In this document: positions 3,222 to 35,138 of the stretch, piece by piece
Numbering within the stretch: the stretch's first letter is position 1
How the letters are laid out: every line of letters begins with the position of its first letter
Source: Candidatus Wolframiiraptor sinensis
GTDB lineage: Archaea > Thermoproteota > Nitrososphaeria_A > Caldarchaeales > Wolframiiraptoraceae
Assembly: GCA_023261815.1 (NCBI GenBank)
Contig: JALNKA010000006.1
Span: forward strand, 1 to 45,845
Reading direction: 5' to 3'
DNA length: 45,845 nucleotides
Notes under the pieces: generated by a model
What the model saw: the letters and a program-made list of their open reading frames with translations, nothing else
Databases searched by the model: none
Told to the model about the DNA's origin: nothing
Translations under genes and position numbers: made by a program

Positions 3222-3313
3222 TGGGCCGGGTGGGATTCGAACCCACGACCTCCGCCGTATCCCCCTCATAAGCGAGTGTAAGGGCGGCGTCATAGCCCCT
3301 AGACTACCGGCCC
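3222..3313 (-). tRNA. tRNA-Val(TAC) with 19-nt anticodon-loop intron (about 3259-3277)
   Basis: Exons identical to 872-962 except the wobble base; different intron. Confidence 0.93.
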
Positions 3314-9911: not shown

Positions 9912-12900
9912 ATGGGAAAAATGAGTAATAAAATCGGTAGATACAGCATCTCGCTAGTGCTCGCAGTGCTTCTAATAGCCGCAACAGCCGCAGTCGCCAT
10001 AAGCGTAATACCATCACCATCAACAGCCCAAGCAAAATACGAGATATGGATGAAGCTGGTAACAACACAGTGGAAGGGTGATACTACTAATCCGGTGTTC
10101 CCAGATCCCGCGAACACTACTCTGCCCGGGAGATATAATCTGACGGATAGATGGTATTTTGTCGAGGTCTTCCACCAGAGAGGAGCACCCTACAATGATG
10201 TGCTGTATGGTGGGATCTTCAGGCCGAATGGAACGGGCTTCGTGAAAGTATCATGGCCGAAGACCTGGGATAACGCCACAATAGTCGTCAAGGCGAAAAC
10301 CTATGACGGCACAGAGCTCGGGAGAGGAAGCCTAGGAGAGGGAATAATAGTCTACGCATTATATGTAAACATAAAAGGTAATAACACTACGGGGCTCAAC
10401 TACACCGGTAATGACCTTGATATGGCTGCATGGGTTGCCAATTTTAGCAAGCCCGAGAACGCCCTCCTCGCCAAGGCTGCTGTAGCCTTCAAGAGGTTCC
10501 ACGTCCACACATGGTATGATTTGAAGGATAATCTGAGCTATGCCCAGGTCAAGATCTACGATATCAACCACACGGCCGCCTCTGACAGCAAGTCCCTCCT
10601 AAGAGCCTTCATCACAAAGGGTGATGGCTCGGGCAACAGCCTATACGACCCGGCGGCAACAGGAGAGCTCTACCCAGCAGACTCCAAGACAATAAAGGAC
10701 AACGAATGGGTCCCAATACCGCTCCAAGTAATGCGCCTAAACAGGACAGACCCATATTACACTGTGCCGCTAGCTAACCTCGGTAGACAGCCAAACCTTA
10801 ATGCAACCGTCAGAGTCTGGTGGGAGACAGTCCTCGTAAACACGACCTTATTCATTAGACCTGAAGGGAGAAATGATCTGCCAGGCCCATTCAACATAAC
10901 AGCCGGAACATTCAACCTGAACTCCACAGTCTTCTACTTCAGATGCGCGGTAAGGGACAGCGACCCGCAGGTCAACGGAATAGTATACCCGAATAATGTT
11001 GATGTTAAGTCGGCGCTATTCTACGCGAGCTGCAAGGTCAACCTGAGGGATAGGAATGGCGCTCCATACCACTTCATGCACGAGCTAGGAAAGACCAATG
11101 AACTCTATAATAATAGTTATGCGGCCTCGACAAATCCGCATGCATGGCCGGGCTACTTAAGCGAGTACCGCAACTATTTGAGGGTGCCGAACGCCACGAT
11201 GTGGTGGGATCTCTTCCTAAAGTTCAAGGAAATAGCCATAGTTGATGGGGCGGGCAGGGTCTACAACGCGAGCGCCGAGGTATACGTATCCAAATACTAC
11301 ACCGGAACAGATGACCTGAGATATGATGACCCGAGGCGCATAGCCCTCAACGACTACCTATACACCATGACCGTCAGCGATGATCCCGGGCCATACAGGG
11401 GCTTCAGAATGGAGGTCCAGTATGCTGGAGGATTCCGCAACGCATACGGCGGACGCGAAATCTCCGTGAACGTGACGCTGGTCAATAGCCCATACGATTA
11501 TTCGCTCAGGAAGCCCAACTGGATAACTAACCGCGTGAACGGCACGATATTCGTCACGGCGAGGGTCGCCGACATAGTCTTCATAATAACGGATCAGGAG
11601 GGCAACATCCTACACCCCGACTTCACAGAAGCCTATCTGCTCAGGGACAACGGCCCACCGGTAAAGCTTGCATTCTTCCAATACGTATCAACCGATAATA
11701 ATGACAAGCATATATATGAATACTACGGGCGTGTCTCATGGCCGTTCCTCTACCGGGTATTAATTGACTCCGCGCTCGTAGGGTTCCCGAGCGTGCCGCC
11801 GAAATTCATAGCCGTCGCATATCAGGTTCCGATGGAGCTAATGTACGGCATCGTCGTCAACTACCAGGGCGTGAGAATTTACACTGACACCGCGGCGGTC
11901 CCGAAGCTCGTGAGATCGGAGGCAGTGACGGTTAACGCGACGATATTCAGGGTCAAGCTCCTCTTCGTGGACTGCAGAGATAGGCCGCTCACGGACACGC
12001 CGGTCTGGGTCTACGATCCGACGCTCCAGATGGAGGTCAAGCTACTGACGGGCCCAGATGGCGGAATAGACTTCGTTATGCCGAATCAGACCCTCAGATT
12101 CACAAGGCTATACTGGAAGGGTGTTGACGTGAGATTCGTCAACTACAAGCTGCCTGATGGAACGGTCATCAGCGCTGCCGCGAACGGAAGCGTGACTATA
12201 GCCGTTGACAGGAGCTTTAGGGAGCCGATAAAGATCACGGCCATGATCGATGACATAATCTTCAGGACGACGGACTTCGCGGGCATAACCGGAATACCAG
12301 ACCTCAACATAACAATCTCCTGGGTAGGATATAACATAACGAGACCTGGAGAGCCATGGTACTTCCTACAGACGATGGATCCAGGCCCATATGCCGTGAT
12401 CGATAATGAGCTCGCGGTCAGGCTCGGCCTGCCCGACGACTTCGACACCGGTAGAAATGACTATAACACGAGCGTGAGGGTCGCCCAGTTCTTCAGCTAC
12501 GTCATCTTCCACCGCGGCGACACCAACGAGTACATCTTCTACCAGATGCCGGCCACGACATACAACATAACGGTGACGACCGTCGTCAGCAAGGAGTACA
12601 CGTACAGGACTCCTGGAGAGAAGTACTGGCCAGGAAGAGATGTGGCGGTGCCATATGAGTCTGTGATAAGCTGGAGCCCCGGCAGCGAGTCCATGCTACC
12701 AGAGGAGGTTCACGAGCCGGCTACTATTAACAGCAGGGTCGTCCTCAGGCTATTCAACTACCCGATAGTCTACACGGCCTGCGGAGCGACGGCGATCCAG
12801 CTCAGAACATGGGCCCTAACATGGAACCTCGACATGGTTGATGGCGGCCTGAGGATCGGAGACGCCAGCTTCGACGTAGTCAACGACAACGGTAGATCAA

Positions 12901-15900
12901 TCCGTGAGATAACCGGATACTACAACGTCTCGAAGTGGGATGACGTCCTACGCTACAGGACTGTTGTATACGCGGCGGAGAAATGGAAGCCGTACTCGTT
13001 CATATGGTGGAACGGTAGCTATATGCTGAGGGATCTCAGCCTAGAGACGAACCTCACCTTCACCGTGAACATGTTCTACAACGAGTCCGCACTGCCGAAC
13101 AAGGTCTGGCCGGTGCTGAACTTCACGCTCCAGCCCAGCGAGGAGCTCTTCAGGGGAACAGCGGTCTACGCGAACTGGACGGAGATACAGAAGAACTTCG
13201 AGGTCAAGAGGCCAGCCCTCAGAAACAAGGTCATAATCTACGATGGCGAGACCCTGATCGCGCCCCTGCCAGTAACATTCATCAAGCCTAGAGCAGTAGC
13301 AAAGGGCGGAGAACCGCTCGCAAACGCCAGAATAGAACTATGGATACTAGACCTAGACGTAAACGAGACCCGCGCGGTCAAGATATCGGCCGCGGACAGC
13401 GGTAATGGAACGCTACTACTACCTAACAAGCCCGACGCCGGTAATATTAGCATCTCATGGAGGTGGGAGATGAAGTGGGTTGAGAGCGCCACGCCGCAGG
13501 TATTCGAGAGAGTCAGGTGGGACAGGATCACAATAACGTGCCCCGACGGACGTGAATACTACTTGCAGGTGCCTCCGAGCCCCGCCAAGCTCCTGATCAG
13601 GAACTTCTGCGGCAAAGGTGTAGCGGTTGCCATCAGCTCTGACTACATCTACCCGGTGGTGCAGGAGGTCAAGTTCGCGAACTTCACGACGAATGAGCAG
13701 GGAGAGATAGACAGCTTCACGCTACCAGCATACAGCGGATACCTCATGGTGCCGACAAGCGGATACCTCAACGCGACAATGGGCGTTAAAGCAAGGAATA
13801 TTACCGAGGAGTTCCACTACAGGTTCAACGTCATCTGGAGGGATGCGGTCGTATACAGTGACAACTTCGTCTTGACCAAGGAGCCCGTGACCTTCGGAGC
13901 ATCCGAGGTCTATAGCGGGAGATTCATGTTCACACTCAGCAACGCCACCGACCCGGCCTACGCCGTGAGAGGCCTCAACCTGACAATATTCTACCCGAAC
14001 GTCACGACATACGACTGGGCTGCCAACAAATTCGAGAACATCACCATAATCAGCGGGGTTGACGCGGATGGAGTGGTCGAGTTCACGCTACTGCCAGGCC
14101 CGAGATTCATGAACACGACCTACAAGTACTTCTTCGCCGCCAACCACAGCGCAATAGGCTGGCTCGAGAACCTCGTGGCCACCCAGCTGGTCCTGAACAA
14201 CGAGACATTCGGAGACGGCCCGCTCAAAGCCGTGACGAGGACTAGGATAGACGTGCCGATAATGCTCAACGCCGCCAGGGAAGTGATGTTCATAGCCCTC
14301 GCATGGAGAGATGAGGCAGGAATAGCCACAGCATACCCGATACCCAACTACAGGATCAGATACGCTATAAGGAACCTCGACGCCGGCATAGTTGCAGCAG
14401 AGGGAGAAGCAACGACAACGGCCGATGGAGTGGTCAGGGTCGAGAGCGGAAGAGATCCGACAAGGGTCTTCTGGGCCGGAATGACGATCAGGTACAGGGT
14501 CGAGCCGCCAGACCCGACGATGACCCACGCCTTCTACCCAGACGAGGAGCCAACCCACTGGGCAATATCCAGAATCAACGGAACGTCCATAAACCCGATC
14601 ACCGGCAGGTGCAGCGGAATCTGCGTCCTCAATGCTAGGTGCAAGCCATACTTGATAACGATCGACTACACGGCGATAACAGTCAGGGTAACCGACGTAA
14701 ACGGCAGGCCTGTAGTCGGAGCCAGGGTCGACCTAATAGACAAGGCTACGATGAAGCTGGCATCATGGTCCGTCACAGTTGATAGATCCTGGGAGGCCAG
14801 GCCAATAGAGTGGGTCGCCCTAAGAGACAAGCACGCCATCGAGTACCAGACCAGGGCCAGGGTCATCGGAGGAGCAGGCTCCACAAGGCTCATGAACGTC
14901 AGCATAGGGCCGGTCGCATACGACGCCACCGATGACGACGTTATAGATTACAGCATTCCAAGCAGGGGAATAAGCGAGTTCATAACATACATAGTCAGGG
15001 TCTACTACTCGCCGCCTGGAGAGGTCAAGGACGGCCTACTATACCAGAAGGCCGAGGGCAGAAGAGCCAAGGTCTATGACAGCACCGAGGATGAGATAAC
15101 TTGGAAGACGATGCAGCCGAGATACATGTCCGGCGCGAGAATATGGACGCCGCTGCCAACTCAGACCGAGCCAGGAGCCTTGCCGAAGGAGCACGTTGAC
15201 GTCTCGGCCAAGATAATGGATATAAGCTTCAAGTTCGGATACGCCGGCAAGGAGCTGCCTGAGAAAGTGGCCAGGGATGTGACGGCGACACTTGAAGGCC
15301 AGGGAGTAAAGATAACCACGACGGGAGCAGGGCTCAATGCGGTCGGACTCATACCTGGAACCTACACGCTCGAGGTGAAGGCTAAGGGCATAACAGTTGG
15401 AAGGGAGTCAATACAGCTGACCAACACGAACGTCGATAGAATGGTATCGCTGGCATTGAAGGATGTGATTGTCGAGGCGGTCGACCTCCTAGGAAGGCCC
15501 GTAACCGGATTCGCCGTATCGGTTGAGGGACCATACTACGCCGAGATAACGACGCCGAAGGACAACAAGGCCACGATCGTGGCCGCGGTCGCCCATGAAT
15601 TCTACACGATAACGGCATCGGTCGAGAGATATGGCGTCAGGACCGCATCCACCTACATGGGAGTGCCCGAGGACAGGATCAGGCTAATGCTGCCGATAGG
15701 CGATGTCAAGATAACGGTCGTAGACGTATACGGCAACCCGGTTGGAGCCGCGACGGTTAAGCTGGGGACAGTCGAGACCAAGACTGACGCGCAGGGTACA
15801 GCGATCTTCTCAGGAGTGCCGCTTGAGACCGAAGTAGGAGCGCCGGTCAGATATGACGTAGTCGTCGAGAGGGAGACGACCGTCCGAACAACCATCACGA

Positions 15901-16361
15901 CCAGCAGAACGACCACCGAGTTCAGGATATTATTCGGCCTAGGAGACATCAAGGTGATCGTCAGGGGAGCTGCAGGGCAACCGCTCGCCGGAGCCAGGGT
16001 TGACGTGCTCAAAGCTGGAGCCCTAGTAGGAACAGCGGTAACAGATGATAAGGGCGAGGCGGTATTCAGAGGCCTACCAGAGGGCACATACACAGTGAGG
16101 GTCGACTGGAAGACGTTCAAGGACGAGAAGACCGTGACCCTGAGCGAGGCTGAAATAATGGCTAAGGTGCCCAAGACCGTGGAGTTCGCCTTACCGCCAT
16201 TCACCGAGATAGCCGGAGTACCGCTGGACTTCGGAACATTCGTCGCGCTGATCGTCGGCATCATACTGCTGGTGATAGTCCTGGCGATAATCATCAGCGA
16301 GTACGTCCGCTGGCGCGGCCGCAGGCTCGGCATCTACCCGCCACCACCGCCGAAAAAGTAA
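9912..16361 (+). CDS. Very large secreted glycoprotein, probable S-layer/cell-surface protein with C-terminal carboxypeptidase-regulatory-like (Ig-fold) repeats and TM anchor
   Basis: 2149 aa; signal peptide; many N-x-S/T sequons; repeated VxVxDxxGxPV/LxGAxV motifs; C-terminal TM followed by RWRGRRLGIYPPPPPKK. Confidence 0.8.
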   Translation: MGKMSNKIGRYSISLVLAVLLIAATAAVAISVIPSPSTAQAKYEIWMKLVTTQWKGDTTNPVFPDPANTTLPGRYNLTDRWYFVEVFHQRGAPYNDVLYGGIFRPNGTGFVKVSWPKTWDNATIVVKAKTYDGTELGRGSLGEGIIVYALYVNIKGNNTTGLNYTGNDLDMAAWVANFSKPENALLAKAAVAFKRFHVHTWYDLKDNLSYAQVKIYDINHTAASDSKSLLRAFITKGDGSGNSLYDPAATGELYPADSKTIKDNEWVPIPLQVMRLNRTDPYYTVPLANLGRQPNLNATVRVWWETVLVNTTLFIRPEGRNDLPGPFNITAGTFNLNSTVFYFRCAVRDSDPQVNGIVYPNNVDVKSALFYASCKVNLRDRNGAPYHFMHELGKTNELYNNSYAASTNPHAWPGYLSEYRNYLRVPNATMWWDLFLKFKEIAIVDGAGRVYNASAEVYVSKYYTGTDDLRYDDPRRIALNDYLYTMTVSDDPGPYRGFRMEVQYAGGFRNAYGGREISVNVTLVNSPYDYSLRKPNWITNRVNGTIFVTARVADIVFIITDQEGNILHPDFTEAYLLRDNGPPVKLAFFQYVSTDNNDKHIYEYYGRVSWPFLYRVLIDSALVGFPSVPPKFIAVAYQVPMELMYGIVVNYQGVRIYTDTAAVPKLVRSEAVTVNATIFRVKLLFVDCRDRPLTDTPVWVYDPTLQMEVKLLTGPDGGIDFVMPNQTLRFTRLYWKGVDVRFVNYKLPDGTVISAAANGSVTIAVDRSFREPIKITAMIDDIIFRTTDFAGITGIPDLNITISWVGYNITRPGEPWYFLQTMDPGPYAVIDNELAVRLGLPDDFDTGRNDYNTSVRVAQFFSYVIFHRGDTNEYIFYQMPATTYNITVTTVVSKEYTYRTPGEKYWPGRDVAVPYESVISWSPGSESMLPEEVHEPATINSRVVLRLFNYPIVYTACGATAIQLRTWALTWNLDMVDGGLRIGDASFDVVNDNGRSIREITGYYNVSKWDDVLRYRTVVYAAEKWKPYSFIWWNGSYMLRDLSLETNLTFTVNMFYNESALPNKVWPVLNFTLQPSEELFRGTAVYANWTEIQKNFEVKRPALRNKVIIYDGETLIAPLPVTFIKPRAVAKGGEPLANARIELWILDLDVNETRAVKISAADSGNGTLLLPNKPDAGNISISWRWEMKWVESATPQVFERVRWDRITITCPDGREYYLQVPPSPAKLLIRNFCGKGVAVAISSDYIYPVVQEVKFANFTTNEQGEIDSFTLPAYSGYLMVPTSGYLNATMGVKARNITEEFHYRFNVIWRDAVVYSDNFVLTKEPVTFGASEVYSGRFMFTLSNATDPAYAVRGLNLTIFYPNVTTYDWAANKFENITIISGVDADGVVEFTLLPGPRFMNTTYKYFFAANHSAIGWLENLVATQLVLNNETFGDGPLKAVTRTRIDVPIMLNAAREVMFIALAWRDEAGIATAYPIPNYRIRYAIRNLDAGIVAAEGEATTTADGVVRVESGRDPTRVFWAGMTIRYRVEPPDPTMTHAFYPDEEPTHWAISRINGTSINPITGRCSGICVLNARCKPYLITIDYTAITVRVTDVNGRPVVGARVDLIDKATMKLASWSVTVDRSWEARPIEWVALRDKHAIEYQTRARVIGGAGSTRLMNVSIGPVAYDATDDDVIDYSIPSRGISEFITYIVRVYYSPPGEVKDGLLYQKAEGRRAKVYDSTEDEITWKTMQPRYMSGARIWTPLPTQTEPGALPKEHVDVSAKIMDISFKFGYAGKELPEKVARDVTATLEGQGVKITTTGAGLNAVGLIPGTYTLEVKAKGITVGRESIQLTNTNVDRMVSLALKDVIVEAVDLLGRPVTGFAVSVEGPYYAEITTPKDNKATIVAAVAHEFYTITASVERYGVRTASTYMGVPEDRIRLMLPIGDVKITVVDVYGNPVGAATVKLGTVETKTDAQGTAIFSGVPLETEVGAPVRYDVVVERETTVRTTITTSRTTTEFRILFGLGDIKVIVRGAAGQPLAGARVDVLKAGALVGTAVTDDKGEAVFRGLPEGTYTVRVDWKTFKDEKTVTLSEAEIMAKVPKTVEFALPPFTEIAGVPLDFGTFVALIVGIILLVIVLAIIISEYVRWRGRRLGIYPPPPPKK

Positions 16362-18415: not shown

Positions 18416-18847
18416 TTAAATGTCCAGGAGAACCCGGATCCTCTTCACAGGCGAATTCGCTTCAATCATCATCATGTGATAGGTGACGCCTTTAACATGA
18501 GTTCCCTGAGAATGCCTCCCGGGATCATATCTCTCGCCCCTCAGCATGGCCTTCAGCCTCCACGCATCCCCTTCCCTCCAGATCCCCTCGACCACGACAC
18601 TGCGCGCCACAAAGCCCTCCGAGTCGAAGAGTATTATCAGCTTCTCGATCCAGTCGTAGAGGAGCTCCTCGAGATCTGCTCCAGACGCCTCAACAACCCT
18701 CTCCTCAGACTCGAGGACCCCAGATGGATCCGTGAGAACCTCGTAGAATGCCAGAGCAGCCTGCCTATAAGCCTCCTCCAAGCTCGGCCCCCAAGCCTCG
18801 AGGAAGACATCACTCACGTGCTCGAGAAACCTATACCCCCCAGACAT
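18416..18847 (-). CDS. Archease
   Basis: YRFLEHVSD, LLYDWIEKLI, VKGVTYH, C-terminal LDI. Confidence 0.93.
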   Translation of the reverse strand: MSGGYRFLEHVSDVFLEAWGPSLEEAYRQAALAFYEVLTDPSGVLESEERVVEASGADLEELLYDWIEKLIILFDSEGFVARSVVVEGIWREGDAWRLKAMLRGERYDPGRHSQGTHVKGVTYHMMMIEANSPVKRIRVLLDI

Positions 18848-18870: not shown

Positions 18871-18883
18871 GAGAAACTTAAAG
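18871..18883 (-). promoter_or_regulatory. Probable TATA box of the archease gene (CTTTAAGTTTCTC); putative target half-site of element copy 1
   Basis: TTTAAG about 30 nt upstream of the archease ATG; complementary to the 9-mer at 18935-18943 with one G-T wobble. Confidence 0.6.
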
Positions 18884-19710
18884 GTAAAAAGGGGATGGTG
18901 GGGAGGGGCATTTGGACAGCCCTTCACCTGCCTCAAGCTTCTCACCACTCCCTTGCGGATTTTCAAAATTACGATCACAGGCTTCATCAGGGCTTTTATC
19001 CTGCCCCTCCGCCCGCATCGGCGCCATTGATTGTCCTCAGAATACCCAGTAGCCTCCTCAACACCCTCTTCTCATCTCTCGCCTTCGGCGGAAAAACATT
19101 TCTCTCCTCCTTCAATATGGTGGCTGTCAACGCGTTCAGGCATCTCCTAGCACAGCCGCTATAACGCTTCCTATATTTCCTTGGGATCTTCTCCATCGCA
19201 TTCTCGACGATCTCGCCGCGAACCTCCATTAACCGCATCCTCATGATCCTCGATCTCATCCTCGAGGTCTATCCCGAGCAGGTGCCTCTGGCGCAATCTC
19301 AACAGCTCATCGGCCAGCGCCCTCTCCTTCATCAATAATGGCTTAAACTCCACGTCGAGAGGCGTGATCTCCTTGAAATGGCGATCTCCCCTCCAGCTTT
19401 AGAGCCCCGGAGCAGATCCTCACCAGATATACCTCGTCGGGATCACAATACTCCCTTATCAGCGCCACTCTCTAGCCCTCCTCTCCGACTCCTCATCCTC
19501 CTATGCTCCTCCAGAACCCTTCTCTGAACATCATCCGGGTATAATGCGTAAATGTGCCCGATCCACTCGGATGAGGATGGGCTCCTATTAATCCTCCCGA
19601 CCACGAGGATCCTGCTCCAATACGCTCATCTCAGCCTCATGGATCGAGATGACCCCTCCTCACGCCTATAAGGGCTCGCGGACAAGCCCCACTTTCAACC
19701 ATCCCCCAAT
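18880..19710 (-). mobile_element. Decayed IS110/Nop-domain-like element, copy 1 (pseudogene plus downstream structured RNA)
   Basis: Interrupted frames from ATG 19640 (early in-frame TGA, frameshifts), a coiled-coil piece (FKEITPLDVEFKPLL...IVENAMEKIP), then KYRKRYSGCARRCLN...LRRLLGIL shared with 33923-34204. Upstream boundary uncertain. Confidence 0.65.
18902..19010 (-). ncRNA. Putative dual-guide RNA, copy 1 (9-mers CGTAATTTT at 18965-18973 and GAGAAGCTT at 18935-18943)
   Basis: Nested stems GGAGGGGCA/TGCCCCTCC, GGAT/GTCC, AGCCCT/AGGGCT, GCCTG/CAGGT; conserved with copy 2 except in the 9-mers and loops. Confidence 0.72.
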
Positions 19711-19727
19711 ATCTCGTTAGGAAGGCC

Positions 19728-19961
19728 ATGGATGCCGGGCTTGGAGAGGCCAGAATAGCCAGAATAAGGGGCGTCAAGGGCAGGGGAATATTCTTATACA
19801 ACGTTTATCCGCCAACGATACCCGACATATACGCCATAATAGTCAAGCCGAGGAGAGACCTGGAGATAAAATATCCCTGTGAGGTCAGGATGGAGGATGG
19901 AGCGATAATAGTGATAGATAGGGAGAAAATCCAGAAAATAGTGTCCAGAGAAGGGCCCTAG
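19728..19961 (+). CDS. Small hypothetical protein
   Basis: 77-aa ORF with typical codon usage in an otherwise empty interval. Confidence 0.55.
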   Translation: MDAGLGEARIARIRGVKGRGIFLYNVYPPTIPDIYAIIVKPRRDLEIKYPCEVRMEDGAIIVIDREKIQKIVSREGP

Positions 19962-20197
19962 AAAGGAATCGTAGCAAGAGCTCTACCAAATCTTTCGCAC
20001 ATGCATAAGTTTGCCCCCGAGAATCTCGTTAAAGATTCGGAGAATCCTCCCAGATGAAACTTTCCTTTAAGAGATCGTCCGTCGCCCTTTCTCTCACCGG
20101 CTTTTACCAAAGGATGCTCACCCGCGATCTGCTGGCCTGCCTCTTCCCTCCCACCGGATTTTCGCCTAAACGGCGTGCATCCTCGAGGCCGGGATCC

Positions 20198-20665
20198 CTA
20201 CTTGCCTGCTGGTTGACCCCCTTTGCCAGCTTGCTGGGCTTCGGAGAGTCTCCTGTACAGCGCCTCGACGAGCCTCCTGAGTTCATTAGCCCTCTGAGCA
20301 TAGCTCGCGAGCGCCTCCTCCCTGGTCCGCAAAGCCGCGTTAAGGTTTTCCATTCTCCGCTTGATGAGTTCGATGGCCTGATCGAGGGGCTGCTTAACGA
20401 TCACTCCAGCCCCCAAGCTGACGTGAACCTCCTTGATGCTCCTTACCTCCGCTTGAATCAGGTTTCCGCCGCCTATCGGGATCAACAGGTTGGAGGCCGA
20501 GCCCCGCGCCCTCAGCTCCTCGAGAAGATCGAGGGCGTTCTCGTGATCGCTCAAAACCGCCCTCAAGGCCGCGATCGAGCTCTGAAGCTCGCTCAAAGCC
20601 CTTTCGAGAACCTGGAGCTCCGCCACCGCCCTAGCCAGCTGCTGCTCAAGAGCCGGCGCGCCCAT
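20198..20665 (-). CDS. pfdA: Prefoldin subunit alpha
   Basis: Coiled coils flanking LLIPIGGG...VHVSLGAGVIVK; likely start MGAPALEQQ at 20665. Confidence 0.92.
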   Translation of the reverse strand: MGAPALEQQLARAVAELQVLERALSELQSSIAALRAVLSDHENALDLLEELRARGSASNLLIPIGGGNLIQAEVRSIKEVHVSLGAGVIVKQPLDQAIELIKRRMENLNAALRTREEALASYAQRANELRRLVEALYRRLSEAQQAGKGGQPAGK

Positions 20666-24253: not shown

Positions 24254-25299
24254 GCGCGTGGAGCGAGCTCGACGCGGGCTCGAATGACCCCCAACGAAAA
24301 GCCTTCAAGATCATAGCGGACTACATTCGCGATTTCAGACGCGGCCTGGAGGATGGAAGAAGTACGCGCATCAGCGCGAAGCAGGTAGAGAGGATCATCT
24401 TTCTCGGGATCGGCGGCTCCGGTATAATCTGCGATGTCGCCTCCAAGATCCTCTCGAGAGGCGGCGTGAAGACGGCTGTCCAAAGAAGCTATGGGCTTAA
24501 AAGCCTCGACTGGGATCTCGCGATAGCCGTAAGCCACTCCGGAAACACCGCCGAGACCATTAAGCCCGCGATGAGGCTCATCGACGCAGGAGTCCCATGC
24601 ATATTCGTGACGAGCGGCGGAGCGCTCATGAAGCTCGGAGAAAAGTACGGGGTGCCGGTAGTCCCGGTCCGGGGAGACGTCCCTCCGAGATACGCTTTCC
24701 CGAGCATGCTCGGCGCCACGCTGGGGGTGCTCGAATCGCTGGGCCTCATAAAAATTGACCTCGACTACAGAGCGCTGGAGTATCATCGAGCTGGATTGAG
24801 CGAGGTCGTGCCATCCGAGAATAATCCCGCGAAAAGGCTCGCGGAGAGAATAGCATCATCTCTCCCGGTGATCTACGCGTATGAGGATGTCAGGGAGGCG
24901 GGTTACAGGCTTAAGTGCCAGCTAAACGAGAACGCGAAGATGTACTGCTGCTACGCGGAGTTCCCCGAGGCTCTTCACAACGACTTGGAAGCATTACCGG
25001 ATAACGCCATCATAATCGTGCTGAGGAGCATCAAGGAGCTGCCGGAGATCTCGAGGACTATAGAGGCGCTCAGCGCGCTCATAGGTGGCGAGAAGATAAT
25101 CTCCGTGAAGGTGGATGCGCGGGATGAGGTGGAGGAGCTCCTGAAGCTCTTCATATTCGCTGATTACGTCTCACTCTACGCCGCAACTCTCCGCGGAGCG
25201 GATCCGCTCTCGGTTCCGCGAATGAGCGAGCTGAAGAAGCTGAACCCGGTTTATGGCGAGGTGCTGGGAGAGGTGGAGAGGAAAATTGCAGGCTCTTAA
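24250..25299 (+). CDS. Bifunctional phosphoglucose/phosphomannose isomerase
   Basis: GIGGSG, SHSGNTAET, TSGG, PPR, QLNENAK, PEALHN. Confidence 0.9.
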   Translation: MSAWSELDAGSNDPQRKAFKIIADYIRDFRRGLEDGRSTRISAKQVERIIFLGIGGSGIICDVASKILSRGGVKTAVQRSYGLKSLDWDLAIAVSHSGNTAETIKPAMRLIDAGVPCIFVTSGGALMKLGEKYGVPVVPVRGDVPPRYAFPSMLGATLGVLESLGLIKIDLDYRALEYHRAGLSEVVPSENNPAKRLAERIASSLPVIYAYEDVREAGYRLKCQLNENAKMYCCYAEFPEALHNDLEALPDNAIIIVLRSIKELPEISRTIEALSALIGGEKIISVKVDARDEVEELLKLFIFADYVSLYAATLRGADPLSVPRMSELKKLNPVYGEVLGEVERKIAGS

Positions 25300-25857: not shown

Positions 25858-25974
25858 CGCCGGGGGTGGGATTTGAACCCACGCGCCCCGCACGAGGGGC
25901 ATCGGCTATCCCGGCTCTGACCAGTCCTCCCACGATCTCGAGGCCGACCCACTACCTGGCTATGGGACCCCGGC
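25858..25974 (-). tRNA. tRNA-Ser(CGA) with 29-nt 37/38 intron
   Basis: Acceptor GCCGGGG/CCCCGGC-G, stem TCGGC/GCCGA, CT-CGA, long variable arm, BHB central helix CTCG/CGGG. Confidence 0.9.
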
Positions 25975-26033: not shown

Positions 26034-26147
26034 TGGCGCCGGGGGCGGGATTTGAACCCGCGCGGCCCCGAAGGGCCACGGGCTATCTCCCGAGAAGGGC
26101 ATACTCGGCTCAAGGCCCGCGCCTTTTCCTGGCTTGGCTACCCCGGC
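26034..26147 (-). tRNA. tRNA-Ser(TGA) with 24-nt 37/38 intron and encoded CCA
   Basis: GCCGGGG acceptor, stem CGGGC/GCCCG, CT-TGA, long variable arm, TTCAAAT loop, 3' GCCA. Confidence 0.9.
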
Positions 26148-33899: not shown

Positions 33900-34313
33900 C
33901 TCCGGGTGGATAAGAAGCTTGCTTGAGGTTCCTAGGACTGTGTAAGCCGACGCGGGAGGAATTGAAGAAGTATGAGGAGAGAAGCGGAGAGAAATACAGG
34001 AAGCGATATAGCGGCTGTGCTAGGAGATGTCTGAATTCGCTGACAATTGCCGTATTGAGGAAGGAGAAGGTGATTTCTCCGCCAAGGGCAAGGAACCGGA
34101 AGGAGATACTGAGGAGGTTGCTAGGAATTCTGAAGGCCTACAATGGGCTATTGTGGGTGGAGGGGCAGGATAAAGCCCTAATGAGGCCTGTGGTGGGATC
34201 TTAGATGCTCCATAAAGGAGTGGTTATCTCTTTGATGCAGGCGAAGGGTCGTCCAAATGCCCCCTCCCTTTCCAAACCCCCCTTTTCTTTTTAGTTTTTA
34301 ATTTTTAGTTTTT
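33900..34313 (+). mobile_element. Truncated IS110/Nop-domain-like element, copy 2 (C-terminal gene fragment, structured RNA, T-rich end)
   Basis: LRFLGLCKPT...SGEKYRKRYSGCARRCLN...LRRLLGIL, homologous to 18996-19259; upstream boundary uncertain. Confidence 0.65.
34159..34267 (+). ncRNA. Putative dual-guide RNA, copy 2 (9-mers GGGATCTTA at 34195-34203 and TATCTCTTT at 34225-34233)
   Basis: Same nested stems and TGGT-N9-GA frames as copy 1, with identical 21-nt spacing between the 9-mers. Confidence 0.72.
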
Positions 34314-34322
34314 TAAGATCCC
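34311..34322 (+). promoter_or_regulatory. Probable TATA box of the HAD hydrolase gene; putative target half-site TAAGATCCC (34314-34322)
   Basis: TTTTAAG about 30 nt upstream of ATG 34347; exact reverse complement of the 9-mer at 34195-34203. Confidence 0.65.
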
Positions 34323-34346: not shown

Positions 34347-35138
34347 ATGAAGTACCGCGGAGTGATAATGGACTTGGATGGCTGCGTCTACCTCGACTAC
34401 GTGCCCACGGAGGGCGCAGTGGAAGCCCTGAATAAGCTCAGAAGCCTGGGGGTTAGAGTGATCTACGTCACGAATAATCCTGAGACGACATCGGAGGAGC
34501 TTGCTGAGAGGCTCCGCGGACTCGGCGTCGAGTGCTCGCCCGAGGACTTTCTAACAGTTGGGGAAGCAGCCGCATCCTACATATCCTCGAGATCCGGTTC
34601 GAGCAGGGTTCTAGTGATCGCCGGAGATGGTGTCAGGGAGTATTGCAGGCGCATGGGGCATAGGATCTTAGATCTCGATGAGTGGAGCGAGGCCGAGTAC
34701 GTCGTCGTCGGCTTCGACCGCGAGATAAATTACCGGAAGCTCGTGGCGGGATTAAGAGCGCTACTGAATGGCGCGGTGTTCATAGGAACGAATCCCGATG
34801 CGGTTCACCCGGGAAGAAATGGGCCGGAGCCCGGGTCTGGGGCCTTCGTCGTCATATTCGAGTACATGACTGGGATTAAGCCGATAATAGTTGGAAAGCC
34901 CTCCAAGATAATAATGGAGCAGGCTTTGAGGAGGCTCGACATGAGGCCAGAGGAGGTCCTCGTAGTGGGTGATAGAGTAGACACGGATATTAAGGCGGGC
35001 AGGGCCATCGGAGCAGATACAGCGCTCGTCTTAACCGGGATAACTAAGGAGAAGGATCTCCCGAGCATACCGCCAGATCTCAAGCCCACCTACGTCTTCA
35101 GAAGCCTGCGCGAGCTAGTGGAGAGGCTTTATCCCTGA
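34347..35138 (+). CDS. HAD-IIA (NagD-like) hydrolase
   Basis: DLDGCV, VTNN, TNPD, GKPS, VGDRVDTDI, LVLTG. Confidence 0.93.
   Translation: MKYRGVIMDLDGCVYLDYVPTEGAVEALNKLRSLGVRVIYVTNNPETTSEELAERLRGLGVECSPEDFLTVGEAAASYISSRSGSSRVLVIAGDGVREYCRRMGHRILDLDEWSEAEYVVVGFDREINYRKLVAGLRALLNGAVFIGTNPDAVHPGRNGPEPGSGAFVVIFEYMTGIKPIIVGKPSKIIMEQALRRLDMRPEEVLVVGDRVDTDIKAGRAIGADTALVLTGITKEKDLPSIPPDLKPTYVFRSLRELVERLYP

Follow-up and report, generated by a model that had tools for sequence, protein, structure and literature searches.

Predicted two-guide RNAs match the insertion sites of an archaeal mobile element family

A 45,845-nt stretch of Candidatus Wolframiiraptor sinensis DNA (contig JALNKA010000006.1 of assembly GCA_023261815.1; hereafter the window) carries two decayed copies of a mobile element. 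We propose, with a probability of roughly 0.8, that the minus strand of positions 18894-19018 in the first of them, copy 1, is the guide RNA of an archaeal mobile element, and that the two 9-nt guides in this RNA (g1 and g2) specify the insertion site. Across the family, elements lie at the centre of an 18-bp bipartite site, and guides differ from copy to copy, each set matching the DNA beside its own element.

Results

Guides match the flanks of their own copies

Searches with BLAST and with a covariance model (R1, built from 12 copies) locate 17-19 RNA modules in the genome (G000, 1.18 Mb), 17 of them as covariance-model matches. When the guides of 18 copies were compared with the 100 nt downstream of the same copy, 8 copies gave a 9/9 match, 3 gave eight matches plus a wobble, 2 gave 8/9, and 5 gave 7 or fewer. 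Guides set against the flanks of differing copies reached 9/9 in only 2/306 pairs. Upstream of the element, the other guide matches in sense, at 9/9 in four copies (C23, C33_50447, C14_9095, and C10) and at 8/9 in C32. The target rule is therefore one guide in sense and, directly after it, the other guide as its reverse complement, 18 bp in total with the element at the centre; the 3' ends of the guides meet at a central TT/AA, which is the exact insertion point.

The same pattern holds outside this genome. Of 15 loci from other genera (protein identity 35-63% over the best tblastn segment), 8 have the RNA after the gene; among these eight, five match downstream at 9/9 and three match upstream in sense, also at 9/9. 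In an independent metagenome set, the RNA directly follows the gene at 62/80 loci. A perfect downstream match occurs at 31/62 of these, compared to 95/3782 mismatched pairs (2.5%), and a perfect upstream sense match at 16/62, compared to 185/3782 mismatched pairs (4.9%), although only 50 of the 62 loci have an upstream region of at least 200 nt. Both ends match at 10/62 loci, via opposite loop strands. The initial annotation of the window had put forward two ideas that these counts bear out. First, the 9-mers were held to be programmable, and differing copies do carry differing guides that each match their own site. Second, insertion was thought to occur in either orientation, which is supported: the guide facing the 3' flank is g1 in 11 copies and g2 in 10 (G000 plus distant elements), and the split in the metagenome set is 12 versus 19.

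Could the matches be short inverted repeats without any role, arising by chance or as a by-product of AT-rich repeats? Because guides end with TT and targets start with AA, background matching is elevated, and the flank score of copy 1 (at least 8.5) is also seen in 6/306 control pairs, so that the match of copy 1 alone is only modestly significant. The controls contradict this explanation (8/18 versus 2/306, and 31/62 versus 2.5%), as do the sites described below that read 18/18 uninterrupted at orthologous positions, and we find it hardly credible. Own-flank matching is decisive across the family, unlike copy 1 taken singly.

Uninterrupted sites in element-free relatives

Run with stricter filters, model R1 matched no RNA in the genomes of 40 related species (0/40), and these relatives are therefore usable as sources of empty sites. 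At the position of C23, G005 and G007 both read TCTAGAATT followed directly by AAGGATTGC, that is, g1 in sense and the reverse complement of g2 at 18/18; in G000, 581 nt separate the two halves. At C9_60481, G005 reads TTAAACCTT then AAATGCAGG, g2 in sense and the reverse complement of g1, again at 18/18, and G000 has undergone a secondary inversion. The remaining empty sites are less exact. At C14_9095, G009 reads TGCATATTT then AAGATTCCG (left half 9/9, right half 6/9; the flanks in G000 are 9/9 and 9/9), and G005 reads TCCCAGCTT then AAAACCTTT at C32 (8/9 and 8/9), AATAGGTTT then AAGCCTAAG at C33_50447 (left 9/9, right 5/9; right flank in G000 7/9), and AACCTAATT then AATTTTGGG at C18_593 (7/9 and 8/9).

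For copy 2 of the window, the empty site in G005 and relatives is TAACTCTTTAAGATCCC, in which g2 matches at 8/9 and g1 at 9/9 with the halves overlapping by one base. Its gene remnant abuts host DNA at 33923 (G000), so its upstream half-site was deleted together with the 5' part of the element. A bipartite site with a half at each end, which the initial annotation had expected, is thus found uninterrupted in element-free species, at 18/18 for C23 and C9_60481 and at 16-17/18 for C32 and copy 2. Two loci, C4_36656 and window copy 1, show one half only.

Several other observations concern these loci. Around C4:36536-36660, the two flanks lie on different contigs in 4/4 relatives, which points either to a rearrangement associated with the element or to an assembly made chimeric by the repeat. 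In C9:60300-61100, a segment is inverted relative to G005; it comprises the RNA and the left half-site together with some 40 nt of left flank. Another short insertion, one end of which resembles that of the element family, lies 15 nt to the right of the C32 target in two relatives (G005:C11 at about 24612-24704 and G007:C17 at about 13160-13334; loci L126 and L127). The site orthologous to C33_50447 holds a member of a distant subfamily (G007:C4:7260-8488; loci L135 and L138). The RNA of this member matches 12 nt of the left flank in sense, and 8 nt of the left half-site recur at the right end of the element, CATAGGTTT; the guides of this subfamily are worked out in part. Many contig ends in the G000 assembly overlap by exactly 127 nt, and several contigs break inside element copies; the end of C14, for example, joins the start of C18. 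For the left junction of this C14/C18-spanning element, the only candidate matched at 8/9 and was at odds with the orthologous flank, and it was rejected.

Copy 1 in the window

We mapped the parts of both window copies as listed in Table 1. In copy 1, the half-site AAGTTTCTC begins 2 bases past the T-rich end of the element and pairs with g2 through 8 Watson-Crick pairs and 1 G-T wobble, as the initial annotation had read it. A similar sequence (TTTAAGTC..TCT) stands at the equivalent position in element-free species. The spacer between the upstream gene and the archease-like open reading frame (ORF) is 43-66 nt long in relatives versus about 1.3 kb in the window, and in metagenome run X2 one contig joins 18866 to 20086, skipping 1219 nt. 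These two facts define an insert from about 18880 to about 20085, with a left border that is uncertain within about 20085-20091. The coordinates first given take in the RNA and the half-site alone, and the element itself reaches farther. The X2 contig was considered as a clean empty site and rejected, for it keeps 6 nt that are possibly element-derived and lacks a half-site; we read its junction as a secondary deletion. Metagenome comparisons were made on assembled contigs, in which stretches without contig cover carry no weight.

Table 1. Features of copy 1, copy 2, and their surroundings (window coordinates)
Feature	Position	Strand	Remarks
Archease-like ORF	18416-18847		called archease in the initial annotation
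Host half-site of copy 1, AAGTTTCTC	18871-18879	minus	g2-complementary; 23 nt upstream of the ATG of the archease-like ORF
Whole decayed element, copy 1, ~1.2 kb	18880-20085	minus	between the upstream gene (stop near 20198) and the archease-like ORF
T-rich 3' end of element	18880-18893	minus	homology between copies stops here
Copy 1 guide RNA module (predicted), ~125 nt	18894-19018	minus	covariance model R1, 125.4 bits
K-turn-like motif, 3' strand: stem, GA, then AGGGCU	18918-18928	minus	invariant columns and structure
Guide g2, GAGAAGCTT	18935-18943	minus	identical 9-mer is g2 of intact relative L161
Guide g1, CGTAATTTT	18965-18973	minus	half-site match not found
K-turn-like motif, 5' strand: AGCCCU, GAU, GA, then stem	18980-18994	minus	invariant columns
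Broken remnants of the 303-aa protein gene, residues about 112-293	19008-19389	minus	frameshifted, with an internal deletion; tblastn and profile search
77-aa ORF, antisense to element	19728-19961	plus	decayed fragments beside several other copies
Copy 2 protein gene remnant, residues 219-293	33920-34144	plus	5' two-thirds of element deleted
Copy 2 guide RNA module (predicted)	34151-34274	plus	g1 GGGATCTTA at 34195-34203; g2 TATCTCTTT at 34225-34233
Copy 2 host half-site, TAAGATCCC	34314-34322	plus	9/9 to g1; 24 nt upstream of the ATG at 34347

The second half of the copy 1 site is where the prediction and the data part. A CGTAATTTT half had been predicted upstream of archease, and the empty sites read TGAGAGTTT then AAGTCG.. 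in G002 and AATGAGTTT then AAGTCC.. in G009, a left half of only 5/9 to g1 in both species. In the window, the best match to this half between 19900 and 20400 is 6/9, which is chance level against 500 shuffles. Because the orthologous flanking DNA is only 77-82% identical and the copy 1 RNA is visibly degenerate beside g1, we regard the missing g1 half-site as unconfirmed and not as refuted. An intact metagenome relative, L161, carries the same g2 as copy 1 and a different g1, CGTGGATTT, and lies elsewhere; G000 contig C33 is 93% identical to the right flank of L161 and has the site in uninterrupted form, GAGAAGCTT then AAATCATGC. Since an element with an identical g2 thus occupies another site, copy 1 may have arisen by secondary insertion, at a site to which mainly g2 fits. 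Likewise, C23 and C4_36656 have g2 sequences alike at 8/9 and g1 sequences that differ at 7/9 positions. Together with L161, this pair hints at stepwise re-targeting in which one guide is retained.

Structure of the RNA module

Judged column by column, the scaffold of the RNA is 80-99% identical and the guides are 20-40% identical. RNAalifold predicts a long outer stem that begins inside the end of the protein gene, followed by an AGCCCU/AGGGCU stem, an inner stem, and an apical hairpin; a large internal loop displays g1 on its 5' strand and g2 on its 3' strand. This structure was tested on 21 sequences (4 from distant genera), whose alignment was fitted to the model, a bias in favour of the structure: 93.8% of cells were paired and 19/34 pairs had changed on both sides, values that 0/500 shuffles reached, while slid controls paired at 45-54%.

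The AGCCCU/AGGGCU stem is joined to the inner stem by N-A-U-G-A on the 5' strand and by G-A on the 3' strand, and both are near-invariant. A kink-turn (K-turn) consists of a 3-nt bulge followed by tandem G-A pairs, and by comparison with this consensus the UGAUGA/GA motif fits a K-turn-like element. The motif is not evident in distant subfamilies. Archaeal transcription stops at oligo-T tracts, and the T-rich end of copy 1 probably serves as such a stop for the guide RNA.

The element and its predicted protein

Intact elements span 1.3-2.3 kb in 10 bounded examples and consist of a gene for a 303-aa protein with the ~125-nt RNA directly after its stop codon. The intact gene (C12:672-1580) has 90 homologues, all unnamed, in Nitrososphaerota and related metagenome-assembled genomes; protein atlas clusters hold 956, 57, and 122 members, and a profile search finds the superfamily in 14/40 relatives, often in multiple copies. 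Pfam returned no domain at E up to 10 in the 303-aa protein and none among the 90 homologues. Four aspartates are invariant (D8, D45, D96, and D99), the last two within a K-T/S-D-x-G-D-A motif. From an AlphaFold2 model with a predicted local distance difference test score of 91.7, the protein is predicted to combine a RuvC-like domain, a coiled coil, and a Nop-type domain, with strands only up to residue 117. Its best structural match is TasR (Foldseek E 2.9e-6; VIA Z 16.2 over 253 aligned residues), followed by IS621 and ISCro4 (Foldseek E about 6e-6 to 2.6e-5; VIA Z 14.6-14.8 over 262-266 aligned residues), the C-terminal domain of TasH (VIA Z 12), RuvC (VIA Z 8.6), and, over its C-terminal half, Nop56/58 (VIA Z 7.3-7.9).

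We pursued a link to IS110 at the level of sequence and rejected it. Pfam, a profile search of PDB sequences, hhalign against a canonical fragment from G039, and NCBIfam were all negative or far below cut-off; the best NCBIfam score, to transpos_IS110, was E 0.27 with 10.3 bits against a cut-off of 140. PF02371 finds nothing in G000, although the same model recovers canonical copies in G039 and G040. Residue S215, which is at least 90% conserved, is a candidate for the counterpart of the IS110 serine.

Each copy has its own heads and tails between the conserved body and the half-sites, and some of these are host-like: over 87 nt, the 116-nt tail of C33_50447 shares 78% identity with a gene start at C10:163168. 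The intact C12 copy (C3:8121-10738 plus C12:1-1705) seems to be about 4.2 kb long, with g1 in sense at 9/9 at C3:8121, and contains an AT-rich part of about 1.9 kb as well as a 1.3-kb segment with a GC content of 73-78%. A 346-nt part of this segment in L161 is 98% identical to C12, yet the proteins are only 74% identical; Rfam recognised no family in the GC-rich cargo upstream of the intact C12 gene. The 77-aa ORF in copy 1 has a single, weak database match (NCBIfam PRK00872, E 0.0035). Elsewhere in the genome, C17:28699-29556 (minus) encodes a 285-aa paralogue of 32% identity with a distinct RNA of its own; the end of this RNA shows the same CCAGCCCCTCCC...CCCTCTTTTTCCCC motif, and two tRNA-like sequences flank the unit.

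The window also contains four tRNA genes on the minus strand (872-962, 3222-3313, 25858-25974, and 26037-26147) whose spans of 91-117 nt suggest introns, and an ORF of 2149 aa on the plus strand (9912-16361).

Discussion

Comparison with known RNA-guided systems

In the target-binding loop of IS621, base pairing joins the left guide to the bottom strand and the right guide to the top strand (PMC11208160). The loop strands of our RNA would likewise pair bottom-left and top-right and meet at the insertion point. The modelled fold shares with IS110 and IS1111 proteins a RuvC-like domain, a coiled coil, and a helical RNA-binding domain, and the RNA is located after the gene as in IS1111 (PMC11187229; PMC11208160). 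Several features set the family apart from IS110. It has one guide loop instead of two, with no donor guide found; PF01548 and PF02371 do not match, and hhalign to a canonical copy gives nothing; element ends are unconserved and either orientation is used; no beta sheet is predicted that could carry the serine; and the subfamily of copy 1 has the K-turn-like motif. In IS621, the pairings overlap at the core dinucleotide (PMC11208160), whereas the 9+9-nt guides here abut, with the one-base overlap of copy 2. Natural re-direction by replacement of guide bases is reported for ISEc11 and ISXne4, and reprogramming of ISEc11 required changes to both the seekRNA and the flanks of the donor copy (PMC11187229). 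By analogy, the latter requirement fits the idea that flank pairing may also serve excision.

TIGR-Tas systems provide a second parallel. Their stem-loop units carry two spacers of 8-12 nt closed by a stem, and two 9-nt spacers together recognise an adjacent 18-bp site by pairing with one strand each (PMC12045711), as the two guides would here. The UG after each guide resembles their "box D" UG, and TasR and TasH are among the structural matches, a likeness of predicted fold only. Unlike TIGR-Tas, our RNA has no CCA "box C" before its guides and forms no tandem array: single units occur at 17 dispersed loci in G000, and one per gene in other genomes. Each unit ends a mobile insert and targets the site of that insert, and the hosts are hot-spring archaea, not the phage and parasitic bacteria described for TIGR-Tas (PMC12045711).

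With archaeal box C/D small ribonucleoproteins (Nop5, L7Ae, and fibrillarin), the family shares a hairpin between two short guides, a predicted Nop-type C-terminal domain, and the conserved UGAUGA facing GA beside a 6-bp stem, which fits a K-turn. It differs in that this K-turn-like motif stands outside the guide loop and in that the guides match both DNA strands around an insertion. An evolutionary link between IS110 and Nop5 has already been proposed (10.1101/2024.06.21.599552). It is conceivable that the modules act on RNA, either as box C/D-like small RNAs or as antisense regulators, with the flank match reflecting pairing to a local or read-through transcript. In line with this possibility, several half-sites lie 23-24 nt upstream of start codons, and Nop56/58 chains match the C-terminal half of the modelled protein. 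We nevertheless consider it improbable. The second guide matches in sense and so pairs with the opposite DNA strand across the insert; the halves abut only in element-free genomes, which RNA pairing does not predict; and no Rfam C/D family reaches its gathering score here. Moreover, the acidic RuvC residues are invariant, unlike those of the inactive domain of Nop5 (10.1101/2024.06.21.599552).

TnpB proteins of IS200/IS605 elements use an omega RNA whose guide matches the flank of the element itself, and insertion destroys the target. Our elements are like TnpB in both respects. They differ in that the guides lie inside a conserved scaffold and are not read from the flank, in that there are two of them, and in the protein fold.

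How the guides might direct insertion

We propose that a protein-RNA complex would have chosen each insertion site and that gene-less copies such as copy 1 would have been served in trans by the few intact copies. As to the chemistry, we put at about even odds a direct RNA-guided recombination or strand transfer at the centre of the site, for which the RNA would act as a bridge RNA with a target loop only. The intact 9+9-nt halves at the junctions favour such precise strand transfer.

A number of results weigh against the guide-RNA interpretation or its recombinase form. The RNA module is a predicted guide RNA, recognised from genomic sequence. Three of the 18 copies match nothing, the left half of C4_36656 is only 3/9 in relatives, and copy 1 supports the g2 half-site only. 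A second loop that would read the donor was sought as internal partners (8/9 or better) of the terminal 9-mers in 7 bounded elements; nothing consistent was found, and donor-binding candidates were rejected, although a donor reader of another form than the one searched for may exist. The inserted DNA has no conserved ends, and its likeness to the guides is limited to TT/AA. The ends of 15 elements resemble the guides at background level (means of 3.7 and 3.2 versus 3.2 and 3.1 of 9), so that target mimicry by the right and left ends, being no better than in mismatched controls, was rejected as well; besides TT/AA, the same comparison showed a possible excess at position -3. Neither the IS110 Pfam models nor NCBIfam match the protein. 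The catalytic serine of IS110 has been placed in a beta sheet (10.1101/2024.06.21.599552), and a serine-recombinase mechanism is weakened because the AlphaFold2 model has no beta strand after residue 117. Finally, the proposal leaves unexplained how new, perfectly matching guides are acquired.

In a separate hand count, we asked whether a 2-bp duplication accompanies the final two bases of g2. Such a duplication was seen in 8/11 cases with g2 on the left and 3/4 with g2 on the right, which is indistinguishable from the TT/AA bias, and the idea was dropped.

With no donor loop, no conserved or mimicking ends, copy-specific heads and tails, and a missing beta sheet, a TasR-like homing nuclease stays a serious rival, if a less probable one than direct strand transfer. 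Under this alternative, the protein would work as a homing or retention nuclease in the manner of TnpB or TasR: it would cut nothing but the uninterrupted 18-bp site, and repair from a filled copy would copy in the intervening DNA. A changed guide would cut elsewhere, and capture of an element-bearing fragment there would found a new site. TasR is the best structural match, and 9+9-nt guides directed at the two strands of an adjacent 18-bp site are also a feature of TIGR-Tas (PMC12045711). Both insertion orientations occur, the heads and tails include host-like DNA (as in the C33_50447 tail), and a target split by the insertion would confer self-immunity. What speaks for strand transfer instead is that both 9-bp halves are intact at junctions such as those of C23 and C14_9095. 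TasR leaves 8-nt 3' overhangs, the end-joining of which would be expected to duplicate or delete bases, and the first precise placement at a new site is left unexplained by cutting and repair.

A third, more tentative idea is that the single guide loop defines the mobile unit itself. The guides would hold the left and right junctions, and whatever DNA lies between them would be excised and moved. A unit defined in this way would account for the lack of fixed ends, for the host DNA captured at either end, and for derivatives that consist of the RNA alone yet still match their sites. If it is true, the family would be a living intermediate of TIGR-Tas nucleases, two-loop IS110 bridge recombinases, and K-turn-bearing archaeal C/D ribonucleoproteins, and it would come from the archaeal branch that work on the origin of Nop5 reported missing from its data (10.1101/2024.06.21.599552).

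Significance

The IS110 surveys of PMC11208160 and 10.64898/2026.10.21.760802 selected proteins by two IS110 Pfam domains; such a selection would not include the 303-aa protein because neither domain matches. Published full text contains no description of the element family that we could find, though the supplementary tables of PMC12045711 and of the IS110-Nop5 paper may list it. The family appears to be previously unnamed. Should our interpretation of the window RNA as a site-specifying guide hold, a compact RNA-guided DNA-insertion system from thermophilic archaea would be added to those known, made of a 303-aa protein and a ~125-nt RNA, with an 18-bp specificity that can be read directly from natural insertions. 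The family also poses a puzzle, for one genome holds 15 copies with different guides in each and a different unique site for each. It unites features that otherwise belong to separate systems, namely 9+9-nt tandem spacers, bridge-RNA geometry, an RNA placed after the gene, and a K-turn-like motif, and this mix therefore bears on the kinship of RNA-guided recombinases, nucleases, and C/D ribonucleoproteins.

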